From: Prorocentrum cordatum
Taxonomy: Eukaryota
DNA: 57,449 nt
Reading direction: 5' to 3'
Assembly (NCBI GenBank): GCA_963575745.1
Contig: CAUYUJ010000023.1
Location: 62,001-119,449 of the forward strand
The notes under the pieces were generated by a model. The model worked only from the letters and a program-made list of their open reading frames with translations. It was not told the DNA's origin and searched no databases. Below are positions 4,648 through 49,055 of this stretch, one piece after another. A program made the translations under genes and the position numbers. The number at the start of each line of letters is the position of its first letter. Position 1 is the stretch's first letter.

Positions 4648-5768
4648 ATCCGGGTGGCTTGCCCCCGCGTGCCGGGGCATGCGCCCGACCCCAGCCTGTC
4701 GGCGAGGCTTCTGCCATGACGACAACTACTTGCTGGTCGTTGAAAGTAGGTACTTTCGGATGCCCAGGTCCCAATCTGCTTCAAACGCCCTCCTACTTCA
4801 AGAGTCGATCTGCTTTTGCTGTGCTTCGTTATTCTCCGGGAGGGCCTAAATCCAATCTACTTTATCCGCTTTTCTACTTCGTGTGCTTACGTAACTCTTC
4901 CGACCGGTGTGTACCGGGCTGAGCAGTCGGCTTTGTGAAGTGCTGCTGCCGTTGCTGCTGCTCCCCCTCTTCCTCTCGCCCTCGTCGGGCGGGGGTAGGA
5001 CCGAAAAGGCATCGCTCCAGAACGTTCTCACAGCGCTCTGGAGAACTCTGGGACGGCCGCGGCGCTCGACACATCCTCCACAGCCGCCGGATTTCAGAGA
5101 TTTCCGATTTGTCCAGGTCCGATTTGTCCCGGTCCTGACTTCGTCTCCTCCTCATCCTTCTCCTCCTCCTCCTCCTCCTCCTCCTCCTCCTCCTCCTCCT
5201 CCTCCTCGCCCTTTTCCTCCTCCTCCTGCGGCACTGCGGGCAAAGCGGTTCTTGTCCGCCGCAGCCCGCGCCGCGCGCGCGCCCGAGCGCGCGGCGCGAC
5301 GCACGACCCCCTACCTCTGAGATCCTCTGGAGGGGCCTCTGGAGGGGGCCTCAAAGCGCCTCTGGAATCCTGGGCGACCCGCAGACAGGAGAGGGAGGAG
5401 CCTCAAGGGCCTCGGAGAAAGGAATGCGGGACCAGGATCCAGGAGCTAGAGGGCGCGCCTAGATTTGTACTAAGCCCGCCACCCCCCGACCACCACCTCC
5501 ATAGTGGAGTACGTACTCCTCCCCGCTCGAAAGACGCGGAGGTGGTGGTGGAGGGGGGGGGACAAATTGTATTATAGGGTTGTGGGTCCCCTCCCCCCAA
5601 CAGGTGAGAATCAATGCCAGCATGTAGCCCGAGGAAGGAACGGAGGGGGGACCCACAACTTACTGGGGGGGGGGGGCGCCCACGGGCCCAGGTGTCAGAA
5701 GTTGATGGGGATCTCTTCCCCCTCGCGGCCGCCAGCACCCCCAGGTCTGTTCCTGGGGGCTGGCACGC

Positions 5769-8700
5769 TCACCGCGAGGGGGTGATCACCAACCTGTACT
5801 CCGTGGGTTGGTGCTCGCCGTTGTGGTCGCTCGGGAGGCCGCCGTAGTTGCCGAAGCCCCCGCTGTTATCGCCCAGCTGTCCATCATAGTGCCACTTCTG
5901 TGCCTTTGTGTATGCGTCGGCGGTGGTCTGGAGTGTTTGCTCTATGGCCTGCGTCAGTGTCGTTGTCGTGGTGATGTCTGCAGGGCAGTTGCAGGCAGTG
6001 AATGCTGTGGTCGGGGTTGTGCTGCACGTCGTTGTGATGTATGCGTATTCCTGTAGCTGCAGGTGTCGGAGGCTGCTGTCCAAGATGATGGTAGGTGTGC
6101 GCGTCATCATCATCCGCTGTGCGGTCCGTAAGACGTGCCGCATGCTGTCGTTGTCTTGTCGTACCGCTCTGTGCTGCGTGGGTGTGAGATCCAGTCGTCC
6201 CCAAGGTGCCTCTTGCGTCCTGAGGTTGAGGTCGCGGTCGAAGGTCGTGAGGTCGGCGTCGATGATGCAGAAGGCAGCGTGGTCGTATGGTGTCGTGGCC
6301 GTGTCGGAAGCCGTTGGGTCAGGTTGGGGTGGGTGCTTGGTTGGCAGGTGGTGGAGTTCGATGGAGATGCTGTGTCTGTCTGCGGTGGCTTGGAGGGCGT
6401 CGGTCACCGCGCTGGTGTGGTCGTGGTTGGCGGTGAAGAGCAGTACGATGCTGGGCTTTCCTGTGATGTCGGTCATTCCCGTGTCTGCTCGGTTGGGTCC
6501 GCTGTCTTGTGTGGTGGGTGCGTCGGTGGGTAGTTGGGCTGGTATTGGTCGGTGGTCGTGGTCGGCGTGGGTTGGTGGTCCCAGTGCTGGCCCATGTAGC
6601 TGGATGGGTGGCCGCTCGGCGTAGTCTTCTGGAAGCCCAGCGTGTCGGTTGGATCGTCGTACGCGTCGGGTCTCCTCCTTGTGCGCGTCGATGTCTTCTG
6701 TTGGCGGCTTCGCTCCGAACTGCATCAGTGTGGCTGCACACTGGTGTGACGACTTGACGTGTTTGGTAAGTCTGTTCGCGGTGTAGAAGTACTTCAAGCA
6801 TACCTGGCAGGTGTCGCCGACGATGTAGTTGTCTATGGTGTGCTTGTCCTGGTGGACGGCGTAGACATGCTTGTTGTGTGCTGCTTTGGTCTTGAATGTA
6901 GCACCGCAATGGTAACACATAACTCTGGCTGGTGCTGGTGTCGTGGTTCCTGCTTGTCGGGGTAGTGGCAGCACTCCCAGTGCTGTTGCCGTTAGCGATA
7001 GGTCTGCCCGCAGCTGGTCCTGCGCTGCTCGGTCGGAGGATGAGTCTTGTGCGCGCTTGTAGGTGCTCGTAATAAAAGACTTGACCGTGTGCATGTCGTT
7101 GCGTGCAGCCTTGATGAAGTCGATGATGTCCTTGGGTGCGGTGGTGATGCGGGTGCCGTCGCAGTGCTGTCGGCATGTGTGGATGTCGTTGTTGATGGTT
7201 TGCGTCCAGGTGCCGTTGACTTCGATGTCGTAGTCAATGAGTGCCTGCGTTTCGTACGGGCATCCTTTTATGAGTCGCAAAAGTTCTCGCAGTCGTAGCC
7301 ATCGTAGTCGGTCTTCGAGGTTCGGTAGTTGAGCACGTGCCAGTATCTGCTCGTTGGTGATGTGCTTGTCCTTCATGGCCTTGTGCGTAATTCCTATTGC
7401 CTGTCGAGCCGCAGTGACGTAGGCTGTGTTGATCCTGTGGTAGTCCCGCGCTGTTGTGATGAGCCATGTCCCCGCGTTAAATAGCAGTCTTGAATAGCCG
7501 AAGGACTCGAGGTAGTGGATCTTAGTCTGGATGGAGATGGCTTGTCGTTGGAACAAGGTGCGTCGGAGTGGGCCTGTTGTCTCGCGTAGCGCGATGGTGC
7601 GTGCTGCCGTCTCCTGGCCCATGTCGTTCCTGTCGTTGAACATCGCGCCCAGCAGCTTGGTGCTTCTAGCGATGGTGACGCAGAGCCCCATGTCGGTGAT
7701 GCTGTGGTTGTCCCGTATCATGGTCCGTGTAGCTCTTTTGCCTGCGACGGTGTTGGGGTAGACGATGAAGCTGGACTTCTTGGTGTTGATCGGGAGGCCT
7801 CTTCGCAGTGTCGCGCGTATGAGATGTCCCCACATCTTGGTGATGAGTGCGTGGATCATGGTGCCGTCTGCCGTGGATGCAGCCGCCTTGACGTCGTCTA
7901 CGAAGGATGTAGAGGACAGTGTGGCGTTGTGGTCGCAAGCTCGGAGACATGGTGGGGCATGCGGTATGTCGAAAGTCGCTCCATCCTCGACGGCGTGGTC
8001 GTGGTAGTCTCGCGTGACGTCCGCCATGAGCATGTTGAATGTGAAGTCGGCTGTTGGTACGCCAGGGCGTGTACCAAGTCGTGGTGCTGCGTAGCTGCAC
8101 TGGTCGTCGATGTAGAACCAAGTCCCAGTGTGTGCCTCCGTGAGCATGTCGACAATGTGTTGGTTGTCCACGTGTTGGTTGACAATGCCGTTGTTGGTCA
8201 TGAGGGCCTCAATCGCGGGAAGCATGACATGTGGGATGTCGATGTGGGCGAGAAGGTCGTCCAGCTGCTCCTTGGTCTGGGTGAAGTTGTACACGAGCTG
8301 GTTGACCACCTTGTGGAAGGCTGCTTTCAAGTCTATCATGATGATGACCATGTCGTGCTTCACGTGGTAGGCGGTGTTGGATAGGAGCCGCATCGTCATG
8401 TGGTTGATGTCCGTGCTGTAGTGGTGTCGACCTCCCGTCTGAGTGGAGAAGAGCATCGTGGGGATGAGGTCCTTCATGCATTGTCTGATGTATCTGTAGT
8501 GGTGCTTGATGACGGTGTTGGCTAACGTGATTGACCGCTGGTTGTTCAGGTCCTCCTCGCTGCCCTTGCCCTTCCAGAAGTACGTCATCCTGGACCCCTT
8601 GAGAGCTACGCCCTCCCTGCAGAAGAGCGCCGCTTTGGTGATGATCGGATGCATGTGTCGGGCCATCTGCCGTGGGGCGATCTTGGAGAAGTCGTCGGAT

Positions 8701-11700
8701 ACACGATCTGGTCCTGGTGCGCGGTGAGGTCTCGCTTTGTGAAGGATGTCGGTGAGCTCGTAGATGCTGGCGAAGTTGTTGACGTGGCGCGTTCTCCTGG
8801 GCTGAGCTGGGTCGGTCCTGTCCTCCTTGGCGTTGTATCTGTTAACCACGTCCTGGGCGGAGAGGATGTCGGCTGCTTCGTTGTGTCCGAAGTGTCGTGT
8901 GGCTGCGTCGGCCTTGCTCGTGGAGCTGTCGAGGACAGTGCCGTCTGCTGCGTTCGTCATGGGGTATGCTTGCCGCTTACGTCTCTTGCGGCCGCCGAAT
9001 AGCAGGAGCTTCTTGGTGTACTTCCACTCGGTGTACGTGTCGCCAGTGCGCTTTGCATCCATTGCCTTTTGTGCTTGCTCTTCCAAGAACGCGTCGTAGT
9101 CCCTGCCGGTCATCTTGACGATTACTTTTCTCGTGGCGTCGATCCAGTGCCGTACGTGTTGTAAAAACCCATGATAGTCGGGGTTGTAAGGGAAATTCGC
9201 TGCAGCGTAGTTGAGCATGTAAGTCTCGCAGTAAGTAGTGTGGATCGCCTCGGGAGTCATCTGAAGGGTCGGGTCGTTGTGGATGTCGTTGATGAGCCTT
9301 TGGATTCTGCGCTTTGTCGTGCTAGCTGTCGCTCCATGTGTTGTTGCCTTACGGAGGAGCTTCATGAACTTCCGTCGGCTGAGGACAAAGTCGAGCGTGG
9401 TCTCTGAGATGTACTCCTGGTATTTCTTCTTCCCGCTTCTTTTGAACGCTGAGGTCGCTGCGTCCATGATGGTCAGCATGTACTGGTGGATGTGCTCATC
9501 GTATTCCGTCCCCCATGACGGTAAGACAGTAGCGTCCAGGTGCATCTTGAAGGTCTCGACGGCCTTCTCGTCATTGAGCTGGTGCTTGTCGATCTTCGGG
9601 AAGAGCTGCTTTGGCGCAGTGTGCCGCACGGTCCAGCAGGCTCGAGCTGTAACTGGCAGGTGATCCTCGCGGTGATGCTGCCCTTGTCGGTGTTTCTTCA
9701 TGGTCTCAATGTCGGCCAATGTCTTGACGTCGGTGATGTGGCTGATGAGCGTATCGTCCGCGATGATGTAGTCGATGCGATGCTTGTGCCCATATGCGTC
9801 TGTCCACGTGTGATGCTCGTCGCCGTTGGAGATCACGGTGTTGGCGATGACGTAGTGCCCTGCGGCTGCTATCTCGTGAAGTTCCTTGCCGTTGCTGTCC
9901 TCGGTCTGGGAGAGTCCAGCAGGTCCAACAGATGTCGACTGCACGCTTCCAAGTCGGCCGTTGGCGTCGGCGAGCATGAGGTTGGGTCTGTGCTGTTGTA
10001 CGAGCTTCTGTAGTCGCTGCCAAAAGTCTTGTCGTTCTTGGGGACCTTTCTTGCTGTGAGGAGCATGAAATACACAAATGGTGGTATTGATGCAGTCCGT
10101 AGTGACTTTGACGATGAGGATCCTTGGCTCACTGATGAGAACGTGGCAGTGTCTGGGCTCGAAGTGCTGTGGGCCGTCCTTGTTGTAGGCGTAGGGCTTC
10201 TCCACGTTGATCCATAGCTCACATCCAGCGTTGTAGTGGTCGTGCGGGCTGCTGATGATGAAGTATCCATTCCCAGTTGTTGTACGTCGTTCGTTGCGCG
10301 CCTCCTGAATGCCGATGATGTGGAGTCGCTTTTCTTGAAATTGTCGTCGAAGCAAGGGTCCCCGCCACTGGTGTGCAAGCCGAGCTGCCTTTGTGAACTT
10401 CTTCTGCTGCTGAGCGTCGGACTCTCTGACACTCTCGGCGTTGTAGGTTGCAATGGAGAGCTCGATCTTGGTTTCTTTGGCAGAGACCGTCTTAGGCGCC
10501 ATGAGGTGTCGAACACTAGCATTCCGAGTTGGTAATCCAAAGCGTAAGGTGGCACCTTCGCGTAGTGGGTAAGCTGCTCGATCGGGATGATCAGGCTGGA
10601 GGATCGACTCCCATTGGTAGTACTTTGTGTCCGCAATGATGTCTCTGAAGTTGTGCGGGATGGTGTCGTAGTCGTGGCCTCTCTCGTAGCGCTTGCGTGT
10701 CCTCTTTGAGATTCCGTCGGCGAGCTCGTTCCACGGCATGCCTTCGTGACTCGGGACGTGATGCAAGGTGATGTCGTTTTCGTTCTTGAGCGTGTCGAAG
10801 ATGACCTTCATGAATCTCGCAAGATGTTCGTCTGCTGATGCTGTGGCGCGTCCCATGCATATGTTGATGGCCGTCTCGCAGTCGGTGTGGATACAGATAG
10901 GTTGCGGCTCGGCGACGGCGATGGACCACATGAGAGCCTGCACGATGGCCATGATCTCGCCTGTGGTGTTGGTGGTGCTGCGGTCATTCAACTTCATGTT
11001 GTGGCTCTTGCTGACGATGCTGCTGAAGGCTCCTCTGAACGTGCGTTGGTCGTGTTCACCACCTTCTTGTAGTACCAAGAATGCCCATGAGCAGCAGTCT
11101 GGTCTCCTTGCGTTGTGGGAAGCGTCAGTGAAGATGTGCTTTGCGCTGTGGGCATTGTTGCCTTTCGTCGTATTGTTGAGCGCATATGTTGCTGCTGGGT
11201 GCAGGTCATCACCTTCGATGTTGGCGTTGAGAAAGGGGGCGGTCGTGGCCCGTATTCGTCTGATCAGTCCTCTGGTGTCCCCTAGGTCGCATGTGCAGTC
11301 GCCTGGTGGTTGCAGGCCGTGATATCTTGTGATGTCGAGATTGGCCTCGTGGTAAGATGGTTGCGGTTGTTGGGGCTGCTTGTCGGCGCTGGGATTGGGT
11401 GGTCGCTGTACTCGAAACGGTAACAATGCTGTCGCCTTCTGCTGTCGTCTGTGTGCAGCTTGTCCGTTGTGCGTTGTTGCATAAACTCCTGTTGGGCATC
11501 GAAAGGGGTGCATGGCTGTCTTTTGTCGTTGACGCCTTTCACCTGTGGCCACGTGGCAGTCTCTGTCGGGTGCTGCTGTGCCATGTCCAGCGCCCTGGGA
11601 TGCTGTCAGGACTACTGGTGGATGGCCGGTGGGCTGCTGTGTCGGAAGCGTGGTGGTATGTCTTGCTGAGGGTGGCGGTGGGCTGGGTTGCAGGGCTTGG

Positions 11701-12836
11701 AATCGATTGTGGGTCGTGGTGTACGTAGATGTCTGCTGTGCTGTTAGTCGCCGTCGCTGCTGCCGTCGGACTCGTGCCAGAAGCCGCGTGCGAATGGCGT
11801 CGTCATCGAGGTGGAAGTTGCCGCTATCCATCTCGCTGCTGTTATCGAGGAAGGTGTCCTCGATCCCAGGGAAGTAGTCTATCGTGATCGCACTGTGGTA
11901 CTCGGGCGTCTCGTTGTGGACGTCGGAGCCGTTGAATTTCCGTGCATGCATAGAGCCAAAATGGCTAGTTGCGGTGACCGTGACGTCGGGCTTGGGTCGC
12001 TCGAGTCGGGGTGGTGTATGTAACCAATTCGTCTCGTCGCCTGGCCTCGCCCTTGGTGTGGTCGGCGTGACACGCTGAGTGCTCTCAGAGATGGTGGAGC
12101 GAGGTAGGTCGTGCCTTGGCGATGTGTCGGAGGTGGCGGCGTAGGAGCCAGGTGGCGCTCGTGGAGGTGTCAACCTGCGCGAGGTGCCATCTGGGGGGAC
12201 CCTCCCCAGTATGGCAGTCGAGCTTGGGTGGGGGCGCGAACCGCTAGAGTGGATTTCCCACTCTTCGGTCGGGTGGCGCCTATGGTGGATAGTTGTTGGC
12301 TGTCCATCGGTTGCGTCGTGCTGGTAGTGTGAAGCAAGTGAAACTGCTGCCGTTGTCCGTCGGGTCTGATCTGCTATCCCCAAAGCAGGAGTCAGTGCAC
12401 GTGGACTGGTGGTGTGTGTCGGAAGGTGGCTGTCAGAAGTGCAAGTCACCTGCACCCCCTGGGTCGTCAGGTTGGTTGCGGTCTGCAAGCTAGTGGAGTC
12501 TGCTGTCGAGAAGGGAAGATGGCAGAGTCGGCTGTCTATGTTGCCTGGCGCTCGGTGCTGATCCGCAGTCCCCAAAGCGGGTGTCAGCCTGTCGAGGTCA
12601 GTCGGTGTATGCTTCCCTAGTGGAAGGCGGGGTGGGTGTGCGTGTCTGATGCTGCAAGTTACCTGCACCGCAGGGGTCGCAAGGTTCGTTGCTGCGTCTG
12701 TGACATTGTGATGCTGTGTGGCGCTGGGCCGATATTTACGTATGGTCGCTTGAGGCCGCCCAGGGGCCTGTTGCTCTGGTCTTTTTCGACGGGTCCGATG
12801 AGCCAGAGCGCCCTCATCGGGGTCGTTCGTATCTAG
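5769..12836 (-). CDS. LINE ORF2 polyprotein (RNase H - APE endonuclease - RT - C2H2 x2 - DNMT-like remnant)
   Basis: The frame is open from 12866 to the TGA at 5769. The first in-frame ATG is at 11951 (the ORF track uses a GTG at 12668). The start given here assumes entry by -1 frameshift from ORF1. Domain motifs are listed in the sub-features. Confidence 0.95.
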   Translation of the reverse strand, partial: LDTNDPDEGALAHRTRRKRPEQQAPGRPQATIRKYRPSATQHHNVTDAATNLATPAVQVTCSIRHAHPPRLPLGKHTPTDLDRLTPALGTADQHRAPGNIDSRLCHLPFSTADSTSLQTATNLTTQGVQVTCTSDSHLPTHTTSPRALTPALGIADQTRRTTAAVSLASHYQHDATDGQPTTIHHRRHPTEEWEIHSSGSRPHPSSTAILGRVPPDGTSRRLTPPRAPPGSYAATSDTSPRHDLPRSTISESTQRVTPTTPRARPGDETNWLHTPPRLERPKPDVTVTATSHFGSMHARKFNGSDVHNETPEYHSAITIDYFPGIEDTFLDNSSEMDSGNFHLDDDAIRTRLLARVRRQQRRRLTAQQTSTYTTTHNRFQALQPSPPPPSARHTTTLPTQQPTGHPPVVLTASQGAGHGTAAPDRDCHVATGERRQRQKTAMHPFRCPTGVYATTHNGQAAHRRQQKATALLPFRVQRPPNPSADKQPQQPQPSYHEANLDITRYHGLQPPGDCTCDLGDTRGLIRRIRATTAPFLNANIEGDDLHPAATYALNNTTKGNNAHSAKHIFTDASHNARRPDCCSWAFLVLQEGGEHDQRTFRGAFSSIVSKSHNMKLNDRSTTNTTGEIMAIVQALMWSIAVAEPQPICIHTDCETAINICMGRATASADEHLARFMKVIFDTLKNENDITLHHVPSHEGMPWNELADGISKRTRKRYERGHDYDTIPHNFRDIIADTKYYQWESILQPDHPDRAAYPLREGATLRFGLPTRNASVRHLMAPKTVSAKETKIELSIATYNAESVRESDAQQQKKFTKAARLAHQWRGPLLRRQFQEKRLHIIGIQEARNERRTTTGNGYFIISSPHDHYNAGCELWINVEKPYAYNKDGPQHFEPRHCHVLISEPRILIVKVTTDCINTTICVFHAPHSKKGPQERQDFWQRLQKLVQQHRPNLMLADANGRLGSVQSTSVGPAGLSQTEDSNGKELHEIAAAGHYVIANTVISNGDEHHTWTDAYGHKHRIDYIIADDTLISHITDVKTLADIETMKKHRQGQHHREDHLPVTARACWTVRHTAPKQLFPKIDKHQLNDEKAVETFKMHLDATVLPSWGTEYDEHIHQYMLTIMDAATSAFKRSGKKKYQEYISETTLDFVLSRRKFMKLLRKATTHGATASTTKRRIQRLINDIHNDPTLQMTPEAIHTTYCETYMLNYAAANFPYNPDYHGFLQHVRHWIDATRKVIVKMTGRDYDAFLEEQAQKAMDAKRTGDTYTEWKYTKKLLLFGGRKRRKRQAYPMTNAADGTVLDSSTSKADAATRHFGHNEAADILSAQDVVNRYNAKEDRTDPAQPRRTRHVNNFASIYELTDILHKARPHRAPGPDRVSDDFSKIAPRQMARHMHPIITKAALFCREGVALKGSRMTYFWKGKGSEEDLNNQRSITLANTVIKHHYRYIRQCMKDLIPTMLFSTQTGGRHHYSTDINHMTMRLLSNTAYHVKHDMVIIMIDLKAAFHKVVNQLVYNFTQTKEQLDDLLAHIDIPHVMLPAIEALMTNNGIVNQHVDNQHIVDMLTEAHTGTWFYIDDQCSYAAPRLGTRPGVPTADFTFNMLMADVTRDYHDHAVEDGATFDIPHAPPCLRACDHNATLSSTSFVDDVKAAASTADGTMIHALITKMWGHLIRATLRRGLPINTKKSSFIVYPNTVAGKRATRTMIRDNHSITDMGLCVTIARSTKLLGAMFNDRNDMGQETAARTIALRETTGPLRRTLFQRQAISIQTKIHYLESFGYSRLLFNAGTWLITTARDYHRINTAYVTAARQAIGITHKAMKDKHITNEQILARAQLPNLEDRLRWLRLRELLRLIKGCPYETQALIDYDIEVNGTWTQTINNDIHTCRQHCDGTRITTAPKDIIDFIKAARNDMHTVKSFITSTYKRAQDSSSDRAAQDQLRADLSLTATALGVLPLPRQAGTTTPAPARVMCYHCGATFKTKAAHNKHVYAVHQDKHTIDNYIVGDTCQVCLKYFYTANRLTKHVKSSHQCAATLMQFGAKPPTEDIDAHKEETRRVRRSNRHAGLPEDYAERPPIQLHGPALGPPTHADHDHRPIPAQLPTDAPTTQDSGPNRADTGMTDITGKPSIVLLFTANHDHTSAVTDALQATADRHSISIELHHLPTKHPPQPDPTASDTATTPYDHAAFCIIDADLTTFDRDLNLRTQEAPWGRLDLTPTQHRAVRQDNDSMRHVLRTAQRMMMTRTPTIILDSSLRHLQLQEYAYITTTCSTTPTTAFTACNCPADITTTTTLTQAIEQTLQTTADAYTKAQKWHYDGQLGDNSGGFGNYGGLPSDHNGEHQPTEYRLVITPSR
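5975..6455 (-). other. Degenerate cytosine DNA methyltransferase-like domain at the ORF2 C-terminus
   Basis: IVLLFTA ... IIDADLTTFDR ... LRTQEAPWGRLDLTPTQHRAVRQDN ... IILDSS follows the order and spacing of the retrotransposon DNMT pattern as I recall it from Symbiodiniaceae elements (LFSG ... GPPCxTWS ... LRS..PWG..L.....V..GN ... LEHP). The catalytic PC and E residues are absent. Confidence 0.5.
6735..6920 (-). other. Two C2H2 zinc fingers in ORF2
   Basis: CYHCGATFKTKAAHNKHVYAVH and CQVCLKYFYTANRLTKHVKSSHQC. Confidence 0.85.
7640..8730 (-). other. Non-LTR reverse transcriptase domain
   Basis: RAPGPD, KGKG..RSITL, QTGGR, IDLKAAFHKV, GTRPG, FVDD, GLPINTKKS and LLG motifs in canonical order. 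Confidence 0.95.
9640..10460 (-). other. APE-type (EEP superfamily) endonuclease domain
   Basis: IATYNA, IIGIQE, HAPH, ADANG, TW, RIDYI and DHLPV motifs. Confidence 0.93.
10700..11140 (-). other. RNase H1-like domain located upstream of the endonuclease
   Basis: IFTDAS, TNTTGEIMAIVQAL, IHTDC and HVPSHEG.PWNELAD; the D-E-D-H-D catalytic set is present. Confidence 0.92.
11953..11967 (-). other. DinoSL relic 1 nt upstream of the first ORF2 ATG
   Basis: Minus strand reads TAGCCATTTTGGCTC-T-ATG, a 15-nt exact match to DinoSL; it translates as SHFGS. Confidence 0.75.
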
Positions 12837-12842
12837 TTTTTT
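12773..12842 (-). promoter_or_regulatory. Predicted programmed -1 ribosomal frameshift signal (slippery heptamer plus H-type pseudoknot)
   Basis: ORF1 ends CCA AAA AAC TAG, with A_AAA_AAC at 12842-12836, and the -1 frame is ORF2. Stem 1 is CCGAUGAG/CUCAUCGG (12820-12813 with 12802-12795). Stem 2 is loop GCUCUGG with CCAGAGC (12809-12803 with 12779-12773). Confidence 0.8.
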
Positions 12843-15664
12843 GGACGCAGCGCGGTGTCCGATCCTTCATCGTCGGGATCGGCGCGGAGAGGGACGCGGT
12901 CGGATATGTCCACGAAGCCGTCACCGCTGTCGTGGATACGGACCTTCCGCGGTGGTCGTGATGTGGAGTCCTGTCTCTTGAGGGCCGATCGGGTTCGTGA
13001 GGGTGGCGCTGACTGGGCCCTGTCGGGCGTTCCCATATGGAATCTGGGTGGATGGATGATGGGGCTGTAGGCTTGGGTTGGGGTGATGCTGGTGATCGGT
13101 CGAGTCTTGGGCGTGGTGGGTACTTCGTGCTCGTCGTCGCTGAGATCGATGAGAATTGTGGTAAGGGGCGTGGATCGCTGTTGGTCGTCGGGTGTCGGTC
13201 TCGTGTCGGGGGGGGCGGACATGGCACGCACTTCGGGGAAGATGATGTGTGGGGTGGAGGGAGTGGCCTGCGCAGCTGGGATGGGGGTGTCGGTGCCTTC
13301 GAGGTCGGAGTCGTGATGAAGGTCAGGAATGGGCGTAGACTGTCCGTCGTCGTGCTGAGAGAGGTAGCCGTCGTCGGCGATGGGCGTGGGAGAGCACGAA
13401 GATCTTGGAGAGCTCGATTGGTGTGCTTGTGTATCGCCGTGGTGTGCTTCAGAGGGCTTGTCGTGGTCGGCATCGCTGAGTGGGGCGATACTGGCTGGAG
13501 GGTGTGTGGGCGTTCTGTCGTGGGTGTGGTCGGGGTTCGGGGCGGGTGGTGAGGTGGGTGGTGCGGCTGCAACGCCGAGGTCTCGTAAGCTCCATGCGTC
13601 TGAGTTGGACGTGGAATGAGCTGCGTTCGGTGGAGAGCTCATCTGTCGTAGCTGCTCGAGGTAGATGTCGGCGTGTGGGTGAGGCAGCTCGTAGGGGCCT
13701 GGGATGATCGCGGTGAGGGCGCCTTCGATCTCGCGGTGGATGCGCTTCTCCTCTGTGTCGGCTAACGCCTGCTGTCTGTTCTCCTCCTCGACTCTCTCGC
13801 TGAATCTCGTGTTCAATTCTTGCAACAGTTCAAGATCAAGAGGGTCATGAAGAAGCTCGGCTTGTCGAAACTCACGTTGCATTTCCTCCCTTTCCTTTAT
13901 TCGCATCTCCTCGGTCGTCGCCAGGCGGTTGATGTACCTGTCGTGGAGCTGCTGCTCGGTGAGGTGTAGGTTGGCACGTTCGCCTTGGAGTCGGGCTCGT
14001 TCGTGCTGGTGCTCGGTGCGAATCGTGGCTGCTTCGTGTTGTTGCGCACGCAGTTCACCGTACTCCTCGAGGATCTTCTCTTTGGCTTGCATGAGTGCCG
14101 ATGATTCCGCATGAGCCCTGCAGTTGATTTCATGAAGCTGTCGTTGCTGAGCCAGTCGAAGTGCGTCTTCTTGTTGCTGCCCTCTCATCTCGTGCTGAAG
14201 TAGGAGGTTGTGAGCACACTGAGCTTCCTCCTGTTGAAGGCGGTGCTCGGATATTAGATGCTGGAGCCAAAATGGCTTAGCCTCCCGTAGTTCGTGTTGC
14301 TGTACTGCTTCCCGCCGTGCAAGGTGACCACGTGCGGCGTCGTGAAGTAGTTGGTGCTGTTCGAGCTCGGTCTTCATGCGATGTGCCTGTTCAGCTTCAT
14401 CTTCCTGGCGTCGTTGTTCAGACTGTCGTAGGAACCGTTGTGCCTGCTGATGTTCTAGGTGGCGGTTGCGCACGTTGATCTCGTCTATCTCCTCCTGGAA
14501 GCGGCGCTGGAGTCGTTGCTCGTGGTGCTGTAGTTCGAGATGAAGCTCGTTGAAGGCCTTCCGAGACGTGTGTGCTTCCATGCGCTCAAACTCCTCCTGC
14601 AACTGTTCGCGGTGCTCGGCTTGTCGGAGATCAGCTTGTTGTTGGAGGTGAGCTAGGTGGTGCTGATGGGGTCCCGTGTGTTGTCGCTGCTGGTCCACCT
14701 TTTTGGAGAGGTCCGTGATCATCGCGAGCAGCTCTTTGTGACCTTTTTGGTGTGGGTCGTCCTGCTGTCGAAGTGGTGCTGCTGCTGGTGCTGCGTACTG
14801 CTGGGGTCGATGATCTTCGCGCTGTCGTGGGTGAGGTGTCTGTGTCCGAGTCCTGCGCCTGTTGTGGTGGTCCTTCTCGCTCTCGTCGTTGTCGCTGTAG
14901 AAGTCGTCATACTCGAGGTCGGGTGTGGCGTCGTCCCTCTTCAACTTCGACTCCTGGAGTAGAGCCCGTAGTATCCTCAAGCTGCCCTCCGTGTTGTCGA
15001 ACTCGGTCTGCATCTTCCTGATGTCGTCCTTGAGCGCATTTTTTTGCCTGACCGTGGTGTCGATGCATCGGCGGTAGTAGTGCACCCGCTCGTCGGGAGA
15101 CAACGTGAGGAGGAGCATTGCCTTGTTGACGGACAGCTCTGCGACGATCTTGGCATCGTCGACGCCGACGGCGCGTGCGCCCTGAGCTTGGTCTGCCAAC
15201 CGAGCGATGCGTCCGCGCTTGGTTGTCACCCAAAGGCGGCGCATGTCCTCCTCCAGCGGGGGCGTGGAGAAGCTCTCGTGGGACTGCATGCGCACGTCGT
15301 CGGCAGGGAGGACCTGATCGAGGATCTCGCGCTGCTTCTTGGAGAACTGGAAGCCGTCGAAGAAGTTGTGCGCGCCGTAGTGCTTCCTGCTCTGCGTCCG
15401 TGACTTTGTGCGAGGTGTGGAGCGAGCCCGTGAGCCTTTCTTGTGGGTGTCCTCGCCGTGGTGGGTGAAGTGGTGAGCATGCTCGTCCTTGGCGTCGCCG
15501 TCGTACTGGTCGTGGCCGTCGCGGTCCTGCTGCCAGCTCTGGTCGTCGTTCTTCCCGTACGTCCTGCGTCGTCGCGTCCGAGATCCCGACCTCCACGGCC
15601 AGGGCTGAGCTCCGACGGGATGACCTCGAGAGGCCACGCGCTGGTGCTTCCAGTCCTGCGCCAT
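12833..15664 (-). CDS. LINE ORF1, coiled-coil-like Q/E/H/R-rich protein (943 aa from the first ATG)
   Basis: Uninterrupted ORF on the same strand directly upstream of ORF2 (the track extends it to a TTG at 15730). Long helical Q/E/R-rich core and a P/T-rich C-terminus; no RRM or CCHC knuckle recognised. Confidence 0.85.
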   Translation of the reverse strand: MAQDWKHQRVASRGHPVGAQPWPWRSGSRTRRRRTYGKNDDQSWQQDRDGHDQYDGDAKDEHAHHFTHHGEDTHKKGSRARSTPRTKSRTQSRKHYGAHNFFDGFQFSKKQREILDQVLPADDVRMQSHESFSTPPLEEDMRRLWVTTKRGRIARLADQAQGARAVGVDDAKIVAELSVNKAMLLLTLSPDERVHYYRRCIDTTVRQKNALKDDIRKMQTEFDNTEGSLRILRALLQESKLKRDDATPDLEYDDFYSDNDESEKDHHNRRRTRTQTPHPRQREDHRPQQYAAPAAAPLRQQDDPHQKGHKELLAMITDLSKKVDQQRQHTGPHQHHLAHLQQQADLRQAEHREQLQEEFERMEAHTSRKAFNELHLELQHHEQRLQRRFQEEIDEINVRNRHLEHQQAQRFLRQSEQRRQEDEAEQAHRMKTELEQHQLLHDAARGHLARREAVQQHELREAKPFWLQHLISEHRLQQEEAQCAHNLLLQHEMRGQQQEDALRLAQQRQLHEINCRAHAESSALMQAKEKILEEYGELRAQQHEAATIRTEHQHERARLQGERANLHLTEQQLHDRYINRLATTEEMRIKEREEMQREFRQAELLHDPLDLELLQELNTRFSERVEEENRQQALADTEEKRIHREIEGALTAIIPGPYELPHPHADIYLEQLRQMSSPPNAAHSTSNSDAWSLRDLGVAAAPPTSPPAPNPDHTHDRTPTHPPASIAPLSDADHDKPSEAHHGDTQAHQSSSPRSSCSPTPIADDGYLSQHDDGQSTPIPDLHHDSDLEGTDTPIPAAQATPSTPHIIFPEVRAMSAPPDTRPTPDDQQRSTPLTTILIDLSDDEHEVPTTPKTRPITSITPTQAYSPIIHPPRFHMGTPDRAQSAPPSRTRSALKRQDSTSRPPRKVRIHDSGDGFVDISDRVPLRADPDDEGSDTALRPKN
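14261..14277 (-). other. DinoSL relic inside ORF1
   Basis: Minus strand AGCCATTTTGGCTCCAG matches 16 of the last 17 nt of DinoSL; it translates as PFWLQ. Confidence 0.65.
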
Positions 15665-16456
15665 CTTGTCGTCGGGCTGGGCGCTGTGGTGCTCCGCGAG
15701 GGTCCTCGCGGCAGAGAGGACTCGGAGCAACGTGCGCGCCTGAGCACGTTGCTGCCGCTGGCGCCGATGCCAGGATGGTTCGCCTTCACGAGGCGTCCTG
15801 GCGAGGCGCCTGCCGCGGCCGCGGCGCCGAGCGATGGCCCGCGGCGCGCGAGCCCGAGCACGAGGGGGCGACCGACGAGGGCGACGACGGCCCAGCCCCC
15901 CTCAGCCCGTGGCTTTCCTCCTCCTCCTCCTCCTCCTCCTCCGCCTCCTCCCTCCTCCTCCTCCCCTCCCCCCCTCCCTCCTCCTCCCTCTCTCCCACCC
16001 CCCCCTCCCCACCTCGGATCGGCGGCTGGCGGCGGCGCGGGTGGCCACCAGGCGCCCGCCGTGCGGGAGGGCTGGGCGTCGTGCCCCGGGGGGCGTGGGG
16101 CCCAGTGCCCGCCCGCGTCTGGCGTGCCCCGCCCTGACATCGGACGTGTCGACCAAGGCGCTGACGTCCCGAGGAGTCACGAGGAGTGACGCGCCAGGGG
16201 CGGTGCCCGGGGAATTGAGAGAGGGGGTGGGACAGGAGAGAAGGGGGGGGGGAGAGGAGGGGGGGGGGACAGGAGAGAGGGGGGGGGGACAGAAGAGAGG
16301 GGGGGCAGCCCCATCCTTTCTGCGTCATGTTCCGAGCTGGATCGGTCTGTGCGGGTCCCGGGGCCAGGCATCGAGCGAAGACGCCAGGCTCGAGCAGAAT
16401 TGAGTCGCCGGGATCTGAGGGAGTGCCCGCGGCTCCGAGAACTCCGGCGTCGTTTT

Positions 16457-16503
16457 TGTTGTGGTTGTTGCTGTTGTTGTTGCTGTTGCTGTGGTTGTTG
16501 TGG

Positions 16504-16574
<71 letters not shown>

Positions 16575-16575
16575 G

Positions 16576-16612
<37 letters not shown>

Positions 16613-16690
16613 GGTTGTTGTTGTTGTTGTTGTTGCTGTGGTTGTTGCTGTTTTTGTTCTTCTTCTTCTTATTATGGTTGTTGTTGTTGC

Positions 16691-16739
<49 letters not shown>

Positions 16740-16740
16740 G
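16457..16740. repeat. (GTT)n/(GCT)n microsatellite
   Basis: Seen directly. Confidence 0.95.
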
Positions 16741-17495
16741 AACATTATTTCTTCTTAAGAATAATTATTGTTGGGACCCCTGGTGCGCGACCCCCCCGCC
16801 GCGCCTAGGCCGCAGCCACATTTTCATCATTTTCGTGAGGAAGTCTCAGGCAAAACGGGTTGGTCCGGATCCGGTTGTGTTGTTACGATCGGTTTTCCCT
16901 TGCAAAAAATAAAAGTGGACATTTCTTGTTCTAACATAACCAAACTTCAAGAATCCCTTGCAAAAAATAAGGTAAAGTGGACATTCGCGCGCGCAAGACG
17001 AAATCCTTCCAAAACCTTAGTTTTCGTAGCGATTTTAACATAAAAACATCAAAAAACCAATGGTTTTTCAAAAAAAATGTCAAAATTTCATCCCGCGCGC
17101 TCTTGCGGATTCGTAGGAAACCCAACACTTTTTAAACATTTCTGTCAAACGGGCTTTTGCGAGCAACTTTTTCGAACTTCTGCAACAACGGTTGCGCACC
17201 TGCCAGGGCCATCATCCCTGTCAAATAATACCATGCGGGACACATTCGTTTTTTCTTCGCGCGCGCACGCCGTCGTCGTCGGCCGCGGGGCCCTGAATAG
17301 TAGCCACGGTCGTCCGCATGCCACGAAGTGAAGTGTCCGAACGTCATAGGGCGGGAAGCTGGGTGTGGGTGGTGGCGAAGAGTCGTTTGGAAATTTGGTA
17401 GAGCTTGAACCGGCCCCCCCACAAAGTGGGGGTATTGCCCGCCTCCGATGAAAACCCTGGCACTGGTGAGAACGGTGTGTCCCCACGTGCTAGTA

Positions 17496-17496: not shown

Positions 17497-17568
<72 letters not shown>

Positions 17569-17903: not shown

Positions 17904-18566
17904 CCCATTTCGAAGCTTTCAGCGGAGGTCCGCGCGGTTTTCTTGGATCGGCGCTGGACCCCCCTTCCCTGGCGCGCGGAGCGCGCCAGGGGCGGCGCCC
18001 GGGGAATTGAGAGAGGGGGTGGGACAGGAGAGAAGGGGGGGGGAGAGGAGGGGGGGGGACAGGAGAGAGGGGGGGGGGCACGAGAGAGGGGGGGGGGGAG
18101 GGGGGGGACAGTAGAGAGGGGGGTACAGGAGAGAGAGGGGGGGGGGACAGGAGAGAGGGGGGGGACAGAGGGGGGGGGGGGAGTGGGGAGGGGGGGGTGA
18201 AAGGAGAGAGGGGGGGGGAGGACAGGAGACAGGGGGCCCCAGCGCCGATCCGAGGAGGCCGCGCACCTCAGAGTTTTTATGTTGATGTCATTGCTTGATC
18301 CCCTGATCTTGAGTCGGGCAGGTCCCTTTACGGGAGGAATCTTCGAGAATGGTCAACAAAATAGTCTGGGGACGATTTTTCGTGCTCTTTTGATTCTTTT
18401 TTTGGGTATTTTTGGAATCATTTTTAAAATGATTCTTCGAAAGTCCGCCTGTAGTAACCCTGATCGTGCCCACGGCAGCGCCCATCGTGCAGGAGCGGCT
18501 GGCCAGCACCCTGGGGCGGCCCCCCGCGGGGGCCGCGGTCCCCACCTCTCCGCCAGCCCTGCAGGG

Positions 18567-18587
18567 CCGTCGTCGCCCTCGTCGTCG

Positions 18588-18627
<40 letters not shown>

Positions 18628-18906
18628 AGTCATCGTCGTCGTCGTCGTCGTCGACGTCGTCGTCGCCGTTGTCGCCCGCATCGTTGCCGACTTCGTCGTC
18701 ATCGTTGTCGTCGGCGTTGTTCTCGTTGCCCCCGTCAGCGTCGTCGTCGTCGTCGTCGTCCCCGGCTTCGTGGGTGTAACGCTGGATGGTTTGTCGTCGG
18801 GGTCGTCGTCGCCCTCGTCGTCGTCTGCGTCGTCGTCGTCGTCGTCGCCTTCGTCGTCGTCTGCGTCGTCGTCGGCGTCGTCACCTTGGTCGTCGTCGTC
18901 ACCTTG

Positions 18907-18939
<33 letters not shown>

Positions 18940-18952
18940 CTTCTCGTCGTCG
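18567..18952. repeat. Degenerate (GTC)n microsatellite
   Basis: Seen directly. Confidence 0.9.
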
Positions 18953-33512: not shown

Positions 33513-33770
33513 TATCATTGTTGTTTTTTTACTTTCATCATCATATATAGTTGCTAGTATTACAACTTCATAACATTTATGATAAAGGATTCATGTTTTT
33601 TGTTGGTCTTGCTGATATTGTTGTTGCTGTTGTTGTGGTAGTTGTTGTTGTAGTCGTCGTTGTCGTTGTCGTCGTCGTCGTCGTCGTCGTCGTCGTGGTG
33701 GTTGTTGTCGTAGTAGTAGTAGTAGTAGTTGTTGTTGTTGTTGTGGTTGTTGTTGTTGTTGTTGTTGTTG

Positions 33771-34530
33771 AACATTATTTATTCTAAAGAATAATTATTG
33801 TTGGGCCCCCTGGTGCGCGCCCCCCCTGCGCCGCCTAGGCCGCAGCTACATTTTCATCATTTTCGTGAGGAAGCCTCAGAAAAGAGGGTGTGTACAGGAT
33901 CCGGTTGTTTTGTTGTAATCCGCTTTCCCTTGCAAAAAACAATAGAAAATGACATTTCTTGTTCTAATATAATCAAATTTCAAGAATCCCTTGCAAAAAA
34001 TAAGGTAAAGTGGACATTCGCGCGCGCAAGACGAAATCCTTCCAAAACCTTAGTGTTCGCAGCGATTTTAACATAAAAACATCAAAAAACCAATGGTTTT
34101 TCAACAAAAAATTGTCAAAATCTCATCCCGCGCGCTCTTGCGGATTCGTAGGAAACCCAACACTTTTTAAACATTTCTGTCAAACGGGCTTTTGCGAGCA
34201 ACTTTTTCGAACTTCTGCGACAACGGTTGCGCACCTGCCAGGGCCATCATCCCTGTCAAATAATACCATGCGGGACACATTCGTTTTTTCTTCGCGCGCG
34301 CACGCCGTCGTCGTCGGCCGCGGGGCCCTGAATAGTAGCCACGGTCGTCCGCATGCCACGAAGTGAAGTGTCCGAACGTCATAGGGCGGGAAGCTGGGTG
34401 TGGGTGGTGGCGAAGAGTCGTTTGGAAATTTGGTAGAGCTTGAACCGGCCCCCCCACAAAGTGGGGGTATTGCCCGCCTCCTATGAAAACCCTGGCACTG
34501 GTGAGAACGGAGTGTCCCCACGTGCTAGTA

Positions 34531-34531
<1 letters not shown>
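33771..34531. mobile_element. (GTT)n-flanked SINE-like element, copy 2
   Basis: Almost identical to 49275-50035. Confidence 0.85.
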
Positions 34532-34588
<57 letters not shown>

Positions 34589-35659
34589 GTCGTTTGTTGT
34601 TGTTTCTGCTGCTGTTGTTGTTGTTGTTGTTGTTGTCATTAGTGTTGTTGACCTCTCATTCCTGAAGAACAATTATTGTTGATCCCCCCCACCGGTGCAT
34701 ACTGTTTTTTCTGAATCAAAGTGTGCCCCTCGACGCTCGCACCCTGTTTCTTGACAGGGAAAGTCTTGACGTTCAAACTGGGCCCCTGGCCCCCCGGGTT
34801 ACACAAACAACGGCTCCCGCCTGGGACTTCCTCACAATTTAGCCAGGACCCCCTCTCCCGCCCGAGACTTCCTCGCATTTTATTCAGGAATCGCGCTCTC
34901 GTTTGGGACTTCCTCACAATTTATTCAGGAATCGCTCTCCTGGCGCTCTGGAGTCGCGCTCTCGCTGGAGACTTGCTTGCAATTTACCGAGGAATAGCGC
35001 CCTTGCGTTGGAATTTCTTTCAATTTGCTCAAGCGCCGCGCTCCCAACACCCAGGCACCCAGGAGTCGCGCCCGTTGTTACCCCATGTGCATGCCCTTCG
35101 TGGCCCCGCTGTCGCCGTCTGTGGCCCTCTCACTGTCCCACGTGGCACAGTTGCTACCCTCAGTGGCCCCATCGTTGCCTTCTGTGGCCCCGCATTATTT
35201 GCCCTTCGTGGCCCCCGCTCGTTCGCGCTCTTCGTGGCCCCATACGCATTCCCTTCGTGTCCCCGCTGTTGCCCTTCGTGGCCTACTTCGTGTCCTTCGT
35301 GGCCCTGCTGTCGTTCTCTCTCGCTCTCGCTTTCGCTCGTCGTCGCCGTCGTTGTCGTCGTCGCCGTCGTCGTCGACGTCGTCTTCGTCGTCGTCGTCGT
35401 CGTCGTCGTGATCGGTCCCGTGTCCGTCCCTCTTGGGGTCGGGTCGACGGTCCGCGGCCGCCCCGCCGATCAGCGCTGCCGCTGGCCAGGCCGACGGTCC
35501 GCGGCCGCCCTGTCGCTTGCTGGGGCCCGACCTGCAGGGAAGAAAGGTATACCCCCCAAAAGGGGTTCGATCGACGACGAAGAGGGCGGGTATCGAGGGT
35601 TTGGGAAATATGCGTTATTTGACACTCGAGCAGATAAGGGCGAACAGTCTTAAATGATG

Positions 35660-37159: not shown

Positions 37160-38307
37160 AACATTATTACTTCTAAAGAATAATTATTGTTGGGACCCCT
37201 GGTGCGCGACCCCCCTCCAAAACCTAGGCCGCAGCTACATTTTCATCATTTTTTAGCGAAAGCTTCAGAAAAGTGAATTGTTACCGGATCCGGTTGTTTT
37301 GTTGTACTCCGTTTTCCCTTGCAAAAAACACTATAAAATGAAAATTCTTGTTCTTACTTGATCAAATTGCAAGAATCCCTTGCAAAAAATAAGGTAAAGT
37401 GGACATTCGTGCGCGCAAGACGAAATCCTTCCAAAACCTTAGGTTTCGTAACGATTTTAACATAAAAACATCAAAAACCCAATGGTTTTTTAAGAAAAAA
37501 TTGTCAAAATGTCCTTCCGCGCGCGCTGTCCGAATCCCACAAAACCAATGGTTTTTCAACATTTATGTTATATGAGCTCGCGCGAGCTACTTTTTCTTGT
37601 TCTAACATAATCAAATTTCAATAATCCCTTGCAAAAAATAAGGTAAAGTGGACATTCGCGCGCGCAAGACGAAATCCTTCCAGAACCTTAGGTTTCGTAG
37701 CGATTTCAACATAAAAACATCAAAAACCCAATGGTTTTTCAAAAAAAAATGTCCAAATTTCATCCCGCGCGCGCTGTCCGACTCCCACAAAACCAATGGT
37801 TTTTCAACATTTATGTTACATGAGCTCGCGCGAGCTACTTTTTCTTGTTCTAACATAATCAATATTCCCTTGCAAAAAAAAGTAAAGTGGACATTCGCGC
37901 GCGCAAGACCAACAAAAAACACGACGATCTCAGGAACTTGCCCCAAAAATGTGACCAACTCCGCTCTCTCTGTCTCTCTCTCTGTCTGCTCTCTGTCTCT
38001 CTCTCTGTCTGTCTGTGTCATGTATTGTATGTCACAATTGCAGGATGCTGGGCACACGCGCGCCCCGAATAAGTGACCAAGTTCTGTGGGTGTGTACCCC
38101 ACGCCAGTGTAGTAGCCACGGTCGTCCGCACGCCACGAAGTGAAGTGTCCCAACGTCATAGGGCGGGAAGCTGGGTTTGGGTGGTCGCGAAGAGTCGTTT
38201 GGATATTTGGTAGAGCTTGAACTGCCCCCCCACGAAGTGGGGGTATTGTCTCGCGTCGCATGAAAACCCTGGCACTGGTGAGAACACTGAGCGTTCGGGT
38301 AAAATGA
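37160..38307. mobile_element. (GTT)n-associated SINE-like element, diverged long variant (copy 3)
   Basis: Same left terminus and related right portion. An internal ~250-bp block is duplicated (TGCAAAAAATAAGGTAAAGTGGACATTCG at ~37381 and ~37630, partial at ~37870) and the middle differs. Confidence 0.8.
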
Positions 38308-38980
<673 letters not shown>

Positions 38981-48009: not shown

Positions 48010-48200
48010 GAAGAAGAACACAAACCCATTAAAACAAACTTTTGGCGCCTCGCTCGGATCTCTTGGATCCGCGCCGAACCCACCGGCGGCTCCTCCGGCG
48101 CCGCCCCTGGCGCGCTCCGCGCGCCAGGGAGGGTCCCAGTGCAGATCCAGGAAGTCCGTGCGGAGCGCCAACATCTGCATGTCTATGCCGTCTTCTTCTT
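48010..48200. mobile_element. MITE-like palindromic element, copy 2
   Basis: Same arms as 45125-45272, extended to GAAGAAGAA..CTTTTGGCGC on the left and GCGCCAAC..CGTCTTCTTC on the right. Confidence 0.65.
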
Positions 48201-48204
48201 GCTC

Positions 48205-48212
48205 TTGTTGTT

Positions 48213-48290
<78 letters not shown>

Positions 48291-48414
48291 GCTGTTGTTG
48301 CTGTTGTTTGTGTTTTTGCTGTTGTTGTGGTTGTTATTGTAATGGTTGTGGTTGTCGTTGTTGTTGTTGTTGTTGTTATTGCCTTTGTTGTTGTGGTTGT
48401 TGTTGCTGGTATCG

Positions 48415-48474
<60 letters not shown>

Positions 48475-48847
48475 GTGTTGTTGTTGTTGTTGGTTTTGTT
48501 GCTGTTGATGGTATTATTGTTGTTGTCGTCGTCGTTGTTGTTGTCGTTGTCGTTGTCGGTGTTGTTGGTGTTGTTGTGGTTGTTGTTTTTGTAGTTGTTG
48601 TTACTGTCGTTGTTGTTGTTATTGTTGTGGTTTGTGTTGTTGTTTTTGTTGTTGTCGTTGCCGTTGTCGTGGTTGTTGTGGTTGTTGTTGTTGTAGTGGT
48701 TGTTGTGGTTGCGTTTGTTGTTGTTGTTGTTGTTGTTGTGATTGTTGTTGCTGTTATCGTTGTTGTTGTCATTGTTGTTGCTGTTGTTGTTATTGTTGTT
48801 GTTGTTGTTGTCGGTGTTGTTGTCGTTGTCGTTGTGTTTGTCGTTGC

Positions 48848-48892
<45 letters not shown>

Positions 48893-49055
48893 GGTTGTGG
48901 TTGTCGTTGCTATTGTTGTGGTGGGTGTTGTTGTGGTTGTTGTTGTCGCTGTGGTTGGTGTTGTGGTTATTGTTGTTTTTGGTGTTGTTATTGCCGTTGT
49001 TGTTGTCGTTGTTGTCATTATCGTTGTTGTTGTCGTTGTCGTTGTCGTTGTTGTA

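Follow-up and report, generated by a model that had tools for sequence, protein, structure and literature searches.

In the dinoflagellate Prorocentrum cordatum, we identified a putative programmed -1 ribosomal frameshift site at the junction of the two open reading frames (ORFs) of a retrotransposon that lacks long terminal repeats (a non-LTR element), or long interspersed nuclear element (LINE), on contig CAUYUJ010000023.1. The stretch analyzed, hereafter the window, comprises 57,449 nucleotides (nt); all coordinates are positions in this window, and the element is read on its minus strand. Programmed -1 frameshifting on the heptamer A_AAA_AAC at the end of ORF1 probably gives an ORF1-ORF2 fusion protein, and the gag-pol-like product of ~3,300 amino acids proposed in a preliminary description of the window stands as the best reading, the frames giving 3,298 amino acids. 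The element is a clean, testable case of how a LINE may translate ORF2 from its bicistronic RNA, with a top-ranked heptamer, an adjacent stop codon, a rare pseudoknot and an ORF1 end that is kept at less than half identity.

Junction of ORF1 and ORF2

The features that meet at the junction are the following:

12833-15664, minus strand: ORF1 from its first ATG (Met80, codon 80 of the open frame) to the TAG, 943 amino acids
12836-12842, minus strand: slippery heptamer A_AAA_AAC, in X_XXY_YYZ phase relative to ORF1, its Lys-Asn being the last two ORF1 codons
12833-12835, minus strand: TAG, the stop of ORF1, adjoining the heptamer on its 3' side
5769-12866, minus strand: ORF2 frame, 2,365 codons from stop to stop, -1 relative to ORF1, first ATG at codon 306

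The final codons of ORF1 read CTG CGT CCA AAA AAC TAG, in agreement with the preliminary description, which had placed an in-phase heptamer right before the stop. ORF1 codons start at 12841 and ORF2 codons at 12842, and ORF2 is therefore in the -1 frame; that this frame is open from 12866 and lies exactly -1 to ORF1, as also described, follows from the ORF list (5769..12866 for ORF2 versus 12833..15901 for the stop-to-stop frame of ORF1, 1,022 codons). The two frames overlap by 34 nt (12833-12866), with the -1 frame open across the shift site, and the reading after a slip is AAA AAA CTA GAT. The earlier statement that the ORF2 frame stays open without an ATG for about 295 codons was likewise borne out: the first ATG in this frame, codon 306, lies 295 codons past the slip site, and the 918 nt ahead of it (305 codons) contain no stop in the ORF2 frame, against ten and nine in the other two frames. 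Chance does not keep this leader frame open, and since it is free of stops up to the first ATG, translation must enter the frame near the junction. Heptamers of the form XXXYYYZ (Y being A or T) occur in phase twice in the 1,022 codons of ORF1 (15044 and 12842) and not at all in the 2,365 codons of ORF2, and one of these two among 3,387 codons falls in the 11-codon overlap. Runs of at least six A are found twice in 10.1 kilobases (kb), the junction run being one of them.

According to the mechanism that we propose, ribosomes would translate ORF1 (943 amino acids) and most would terminate at the TAG next to AAA AAC, while a fraction would move one base backwards at A_AAA_AAC and re-pair the tRNAs for Lys and Asn with AAA AAA. 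The slip would be aided by the adjacent stop and by an H-type pseudoknot with a stem 1 of 8 base pairs (bp), a stacked stem 2 of 7 bp and an A-rich connecting loop of 15 nt. Shifted ribosomes would then read CUA GAU and onward, 2,355 further codons in all, and the predicted fusion (943 + 2,355 = 3,298 amino acids; junction ...LRPKN-LDTNDPDEG...) would carry the RNase H, endonuclease, reverse transcriptase and zinc finger. The trans-frame tryptic peptide expected from the slip is NLDTNDPDEGALAHR. The ORF2 enzymes would be made at a set fraction of the ORF1 protein and tethered to it, as in retroviral Gag-Pol. We infer from the sequence that the slip occurs and how efficient it is, that the pseudoknot has a role in it, how the 15-nt spacer is accommodated and that the ORF1:ORF2 ratio is fixed; A_AAA_AAC is described as one of the most shift-prone heptamers for mammalian ribosomes (PMC5009743).

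A homopolymer error or one-off indel in the A6 run, a possibility raised in the preliminary description, was not found. Contigs of four public runs from four studies, one run possibly being the source of the window, were compared over 12400-13300; such contigs drop rare variants. Runs X9-X23, which had small word shares, do not enter the evidence. The pieces that cross the A6 run, from runs X1 (12611-13300), X2 (12760-13172), X3 (12792-13026) and X7 (12674-13153), did so with 0 gaps each, also over 12836-12842, and contained 8, 2, 1 and 9 substitutions, respectively. No substitution or indel was listed in 12773-12842, the nearest differences being at 12857 (X7) and 12759, and the low-depth 1-nt deletions in X3 (12763, 12791, 13025, 13053, and 13080) include none at the A run. 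With 0 gaps in contigs of four runs from four studies, the six A of this run are not the error of one assembly.

A dead copy or artefact, in which a single-ORF element has lost one nucleotide of the homopolymer or had it miscounted and the heptamer and stems are coincidental, is very improbable in our judgement. Indels do favor homopolymers, and P0004 and P0005, which are distant relatives, each consist of one long ORF, but this explanation is largely refuted: the same A6 is present in the four runs, both ORFs are intact over 1,022 and 2,365 codons, and a sibling gene model is 99% identical. Another explanation, which we regard as quite improbable, is slippage of the transcribing polymerase or of the reverse transcriptase on A6, by which some RNAs would gain one A (A7) and carry the ORFs in one frame (...RPKKLDTN..., with the predicted junction peptide KLDTNDPDEGALAHR). 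One extra A yields exactly the ORF2 frame, the junction has one of the only two long A runs, and the conservation of Lys-Asn-stop described below is compatible with a conserved A run. However, no extra or missing A is listed at 12836-12842 in the four runs (contigs, mostly of DNA, from which rare variants are dropped), whereas minor 1-nt deletions are listed elsewhere. A run of six bases is short for polymerase slippage, and A7 slippage needs neither a pseudoknot nor an adjacent stop.

A candidate downstream pseudoknot

Past the heptamer, the sense strand contains the following parts of a candidate pseudoknot:

12821-12835, minus strand: spacer between the heptamer and stem 1, 15 nt including the TAG; CGAC within it (12825-12822) could serve as 5' arm of a lower helix
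12813-12820, minus strand: 5' arm of stem 1 (S1), CCGAUGAG
12803-12809, minus strand: 5' arm of stem 2 (S2), GCUCUGG, the last 7 nt of the S1 loop, abutting the S1 3' arm directly
12795-12802, minus strand: 3' arm of S1, CUCAUCGG
12780-12794, minus strand: connecting loop, 15 nt, ACCCGUCGAAAAAGA; includes an A5 run and GUCG (12790-12787), which could serve as 3' arm of that lower helix
12773-12779, minus strand: 3' arm of S2, CCAGAGC, 15 nt past S1

S1 consists of 8 bp, all Watson-Crick (CCGAUGAG with CUCAUCGG), and its loop of 10 nt (GGCGCUCUGG) is made up of GGC (12812-12810) followed by the 5' arm of S2. The 7 bp of S2 (GCUCUGG with CCAGAGC) are perfect and give an H-type topology with S1. 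All pairs were checked in the sequence, and the perfect 8-bp stem, the pairing of its loop with CCAGAGC 15 nt further on and an additional CGAC/GUCG helix able to cut the spacer from 15 to 10 nt are present as first described. Addition of this extra helix (12825-12822 with 12790-12787) changes the hairpin energy from -13.0 to -15.8 kcal/mol. The A5 run of the connecting loop adjoins S1; such runs are common in frameshift pseudoknots.

Under a strict rule, which asks for perfect stems with 8 or more bp in S1 and 7 or more in S2, the 11.5-kb sense strand contains one pseudoknot, located at the junction, and one was found in 1 of 60 dinucleotide shuffles (0.017 per shuffled element). Under looser criteria, with stems of 5 bp or more that total 15 bp or more, this pseudoknot is again the only one in the element, and 40 shuffles average 0.025 per 10.1 kb. 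The probability that such a knot begins no more than 30 nt from any one point is below 1 in 10,000, a figure somewhat inflated by the post hoc thresholds; this improbability also speaks against the coincidental stems of a dead copy. A comparison of 12650-12950 with 4,227 Rfam families at E values up to 10 gave only two matches, at 11.8 and 11 bits, which fall well short of the gathering scores and amount to noise, and no frameshift element.

The spacer of 15 nt (12835-12821) is longer than the 5-9 nt usually found between heptamer and structure (PMC5009743), as the preliminary description had cautioned, and could be accommodated in three ways. The 4-bp lower helix may shorten it to 10 nt. Alternatively, and preferred by us, the shift may take place while UAG is in the A site, and the lower helix would then begin 14 nt from the first P-site codon base, about the usual place of a stimulator. 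Finally, a bound protein may extend the roadblock.

The 15-nt distance would be unproblematic for re-initiation, or AUG-independent initiation, at a near-cognate codon of the ORF2 frame after the TAG, with the downstream structure holding or pausing ribosomes and a separate ORF2 protein made instead of a fusion. Near-cognate ACG (12830-12828, 2 nt past the stop, codon 13) and CTG (12806-12804, codon 21) are present in the ORF2 frame. Furthermore, an RNA structure downstream of the UAAUG stop-start of SART1 affects ORF2 initiation (PMC3894237), and for ORF2 of mammalian LINEs a new kind of initiation that does not depend on the AUG has been suggested (PMC5009743). We nevertheless consider this explanation distinctly unlikely. 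Re-initiation after a long ORF1 has been called 'highly improbable' (PMC3894237), and it leaves unexplained both the position of one of only two in-phase heptamers and the invariant Lys-Asn before the stop in five of five ORF1 ends.

ORF1 relatives and known recoding systems

A full-library search with ORF1 returned 11 proteins at an E value of 0.001 or better, all of them fragments, and four of these reach the ORF1 C-terminus:

P0007: 94% identity to ORF1, NCBI contig of 996 bp, ends RSKN
P0009: 48% identity to ORF1, ENA contig of 617 bp, ends MSKN
P0011: 47% identity to ORF1, ENA contig of 615 bp, ends RAKN
P0015: 49% identity to ORF1, ENA contig of 601 bp, ends PRKN

ORF1 of the window ends RPKN, and Lys-Asn followed immediately by the stop was thus found in four of four relatives and in five of five proteins with the window, K and N being invariant columns of the alignment. 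All five ends have in common the block PPPRFHxGTPERAxSAP ... KVRIxDxGDGF ... DR, and the tail of 15-30 residues between this block and Lys-Asn varies in sequence and length. Lys-Asn-stop is what is expected at the end of ORF1 from an AAA AAC heptamer with an abutting stop, and at the protein level it is invariant in the alignment down to 43-48% identity; a lack of conservation, one of the refuting outcomes named in the preliminary description, was thus not observed at this level. No other model considered appears to predict an invariant Lys-Asn-stop, although it would be compatible with a conserved A run. By the genetic code, the residue ahead of Lys-Asn (P, S, S, A, and R) can in each case be encoded by a codon ending in A. 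That relatives at 47-49% identity stop at the same Lys-Asn is a further point against a dead copy.

The invariant adjacency of the stop in all five ORF1 ends fits a role for the stop, and the invariant Lys-Asn-stop together with the 15-nt spacer suggests a shift that occurs while the ribosome waits at the stop. A more far-reaching possibility, which we consider unlikely, is that a whole family of dinoflagellate LINEs uses a conserved, non-textbook -1 shift, either by a stop-waiting slip in which peptidyl-tRNA(Asn) would leave AAC for AAA, the base of a lengthened pseudoknot lying where the mRNA enters the ribosome, or with a protein-bound knot. The knot-binding protein would perhaps be the ORF1 protein itself, as with cardiovirus 2A, and the ORF1 level would then feed back on the ORF1:ORF2 ratio.

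Several observations weigh against programmed frameshifting at this site. The contigs of the four runs are ~98-100% identical to the window, and their agreement within the 70-nt signal therefore weighs little; at the substitution rate of X7, about one difference would be expected in these 70 nt. Heptamers, -1 frames and stems in the diverged relatives are predicted from the protein ends alone. In a nested, pseudoknot-free fold, the 96 nt past the heptamer do not stand out from shuffled sequence (-27.2 kcal/mol at z -0.59, with 53 of 200 shuffles as stable), and a nested alternative of -19.4 to -21.2 kcal/mol, which uses the S2 arms and excludes S1, is of similar size to a rough estimate for the pseudoknot. 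The spacer falls outside the usual range also at 10 nt with the lower helix, and with that helix formed, 7 loop nt must cross ~13 stacked pairs, which is tight. Codon usage in the ORF2 leader favors the ORF2 frame only marginally (-0.159 versus -0.246 and -0.218 bits per codon), whereas ORF1 and the remainder of ORF2 have a clear codon-usage preference, and of the places at which copies differ, a hand count puts 5 of 18 at third codon positions for the leader and 5 of 8 for the ORF1 tail. Owing to this marginal codon usage, the few third-position differences and its low complexity, the leader looks like a fast-evolving linker in which the open frame, rather than the residues, would be kept.

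Retroviral gag-pro and gag-pol junctions likewise have an X_XXY_YYZ heptamer that ends the upstream structural ORF, an overlapping enzyme ORF in the -1 frame, an H-type pseudoknot and an expected fusion, and gag-pro of mouse mammary tumor virus (MMTV) reportedly uses A_AAA_AAC. In contrast to retroviruses, the element described here is a non-LTR element without protease or integrase among its Pfam matches, it has a spacer of 15 nt, or 10 nt if the lower helix forms, where 5-9 nt are usual, and the stop abuts the heptamer in all five ORF1 ends. The pseudoknot also departs from the MMTV type with which it had first been compared: an intercalated adenosine is described as needed for an active knot of that type (PMC5009743), whereas here the S2 5' arm (to 12803) is contiguous with the S1 3' arm (from 12802), so that there is no unpaired base at the helix junction, and S1 is 8 bp. 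Protein-stimulated frameshifting in cardioviruses and arteriviruses has spacers of 11-14 nt (PMC5009743); the stimulators there are a stem-loop or a C-rich motif bound by a viral protein, and the likeness to the 15 nt found here is in spacing only.

Among non-LTR elements, a -1 frameshift is stated to be required for ORF2 of TRE5-A and TRE3-A from Dictyostelium (PMC5911963, legend of a review), and in the available parts of the sources no description of their shift site or stimulator was found. Compared with these elements by description, not by homology, the one studied here has an N-terminal RNase H, a 564-residue ORF2 leader and a dinoflagellate host. The gag of Drosophila HeT-A needs a frameshift (PMC5009743), but this shift lies inside gag, and HeT-A has no reverse transcriptase. 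Paramecium, like the dinoflagellates an alveolate, has LINEs (groups 1-2) that may use +1 shifting or re-initiation (PMC5405496), thus +1 and not -1. No heptamer or pseudoknot is described for the HeT-A and Paramecium cases in the parts of the sources available, and more generally the LINEs said to need a frameshift are mentioned there without a described signal. The LINE RNAs of SART1 and mammalian L1 are bicistronic as well, and translation of their ORF2 depends on what happens where ORF1 stops; unlike these, the element has no AUG at or near the junction, a slippery heptamer and a predicted fusion instead of two proteins.

Frameshifting had initially been called unusual for a LINE. Two reviews of non-LTR translation (PMC3894237 and PMC2881922) contain 0 occurrences of the word frameshift, and nothing on LINE frameshifting was found in the available part of PMC7175516; the claim of rarity is softened because a -1 shift is already stated for TRE5-A/TRE3-A and a frameshift for HeT-A. 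A full-text literature search, with most subscription journals outside its scope, found no slippery heptamer with pseudoknot in a non-LTR or dinoflagellate element, and older reports may exist. As far as this search reaches, no recoding signal had yet been proposed for any nuclear element of a dinoflagellate, and the present one would be the first.

Cluster look-up of 10 ORF1-like fragments gave singletons in all cases and no further members. Five fragments (P0010, P0012, P0013, P0014, and P0017; 35-57% identity) are filed in EukProt under the green alga Pyramimonas sp. CCMP1952, where they could represent dinoflagellate contamination of the transcriptome or a related element; the EukProt-filed fragments suggest that such ORF1s are transcribed. 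Pattern matches were confirmed neither in metagenome contigs with the ORF1 tail (0 of 190) or with an alignment of RNase H, APE (apurinic endonuclease) and reverse transcriptase (RT) regions (A1; 0 of 176), nor in viral contigs with A1 (0 of 138) or genome contigs with alignment A2 (0 of 77). In viral contigs, 2 of 41 matches to A2 passed (L001, 17 residues; L002, 43 residues at 33%) and were taken for chance.

Organization and surroundings of the element

The further features of the element and its flanks are the following:

5228-15915, minus strand: non-LTR retrotransposon, approximate extent, with 5' untranslated region (UTR), ORF1, ORF2 and a 3' UTR of ~540 nt, between two (GGA)n arrays
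10701-11144, minus strand: RNase H domain at residues 575-722 of ORF2, on the N-terminal side of the endonuclease (PF00075, E 1.5e-10, 41.9 bits, cut-off 25.8)
9759-10460, minus strand: apurinic-type endonuclease region of ORF2, ~residues 803-1036, from the alignment to P0004, which carries PF03372
7761-8549, minus strand: reverse transcriptase domain of ORF2, residues 1440-1702 (PF00078, RVT_1; E 1.5e-4; its 22 bits fall short of the cut-off, 29.6); the domain also aligns with P0004
6852-6920, minus strand: C2H2-type zinc finger at residues 1983-2005 of ORF2 (PF13894, under the cut-off with E 0.0031)
15916-15987, minus strand: (GGA)n array directly upstream of the element
5145-5227, minus strand: (GGA)n array at or past the 3' end of the element

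We assign the element to the APE-type non-LTR retrotransposons because of the domains of ORF2, the alignment to P0004 and the lack of flanking LTRs, and it would represent an intact, recently active dinoflagellate LINE. The endonuclease region has no Pfam match of its own at an E value of 0.01 or better and is assigned via the P0004 alignment, in which ORF2 is 23% identical over 1,592 columns, from RNase H onward, to this protein of 3,142 amino acids with PF03372. The approximate ends of the element were inferred from the flanking microsatellites. Self-comparison of 5001-17000 revealed microsatellites but no long direct repeats flanking the coding part, and the (GGA)n array at the 3' end may correspond to the simple-repeat tail of a LINE. 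Neither blastn (5001-17000) nor tblastn (P0001, P0002, and P0004) detected a second copy within the window, the matches being the element itself and microsatellites only. ORF1 has no Pfam family at an E value of 0.01 or better; by eye, it consists of a basic N-terminus, a Gln/Glu/His-rich center resembling a coiled coil and a Pro/Thr/Ser-rich tail. The domain order RNase H, APE, RT and zinc finger in ORF2 is common to the distant relatives P0004 and P0005. In commonly described LINE clades, RNase H is placed after RT, and the N-terminal RNase H may mark a separate dinoflagellate clade.

Of the database proteins, P0003 is the nearest to the element, with 99% identity in the compared part; this NCBI gene model bears the name of Prorocentrum cordatum and represents a sibling copy on another contig. 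Further relatives are ENA proteins and a Symbiodinium model. P0003 (1,892 amino acids) joins the ORF1 N-terminus, with insertions of 9 and 13 residues relative to the window, to ORF2 and leaves out the coiled-coil part, the tail of ORF1, the junction and the greater part of the ORF2 leader. The change of frame appears to have forced a false splicing pattern on this model, and it explains why gene predictors produce such models across elements of this kind. P0004 and P0005 (3,256 amino acids), ENA proteins of 22-23% identity, are single ORFs with ~1,580 residues N-terminal to RNase H, and in the window ORF1 (943 residues) and the ORF2 leader (564 residues) precede this domain. As ORF1 has no similarity to the N-terminal 1,580 residues of P0004 (best E 0.96), an argument from the same total length is only an analogy. 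By eye, the N-terminal region of P0004 and P0005 has apparent internal repeats of a motif like RFPHL...PQP, and it may be a different, fused kind of 'ORF1'.

Residues 1-330 of the ORF2 leader matched only P0003 (11% of the query) among proteins of 1,300-4,139 amino acids, and none of 7,999 scored candidates of 30-1,299 amino acids. The leader (codons 11-305) is of low complexity and has an imperfect internal duplication of ~200 nt, with two pairs in 12360-12692 (12440-12479/12653-12692 and 12360-12395/12552-12587) that are 81-83% identical. In run X1, many short contigs and a higher depth were observed at 12555-12647, with loose ends at 12651 and 12686, and this pile-up hints at differences in repeat number among copies.

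In the surroundings, (GGA)n recurs many times, with similar arrays across 31000-52600, and the arrays flanking the element may reflect a 3' tail, insertion into or targeting of a microsatellite, or both. The window contains 100 N, presumably one assembly gap, outside 5001-17000, which self-aligned unbroken. Just upstream of the element are long trinucleotide arrays, (GTT)96, (TTG)24 and (CGT)127, together with G-rich tandem repeats of 17-20 nt (repeat positions 16452-16740, 17497-17567, 18568-18952, 16217-16308, and 18009-18236). Related arrays at 33600-34650, 38300-38980, and 48190-49540 match these upstream arrays at 75-83% identity.

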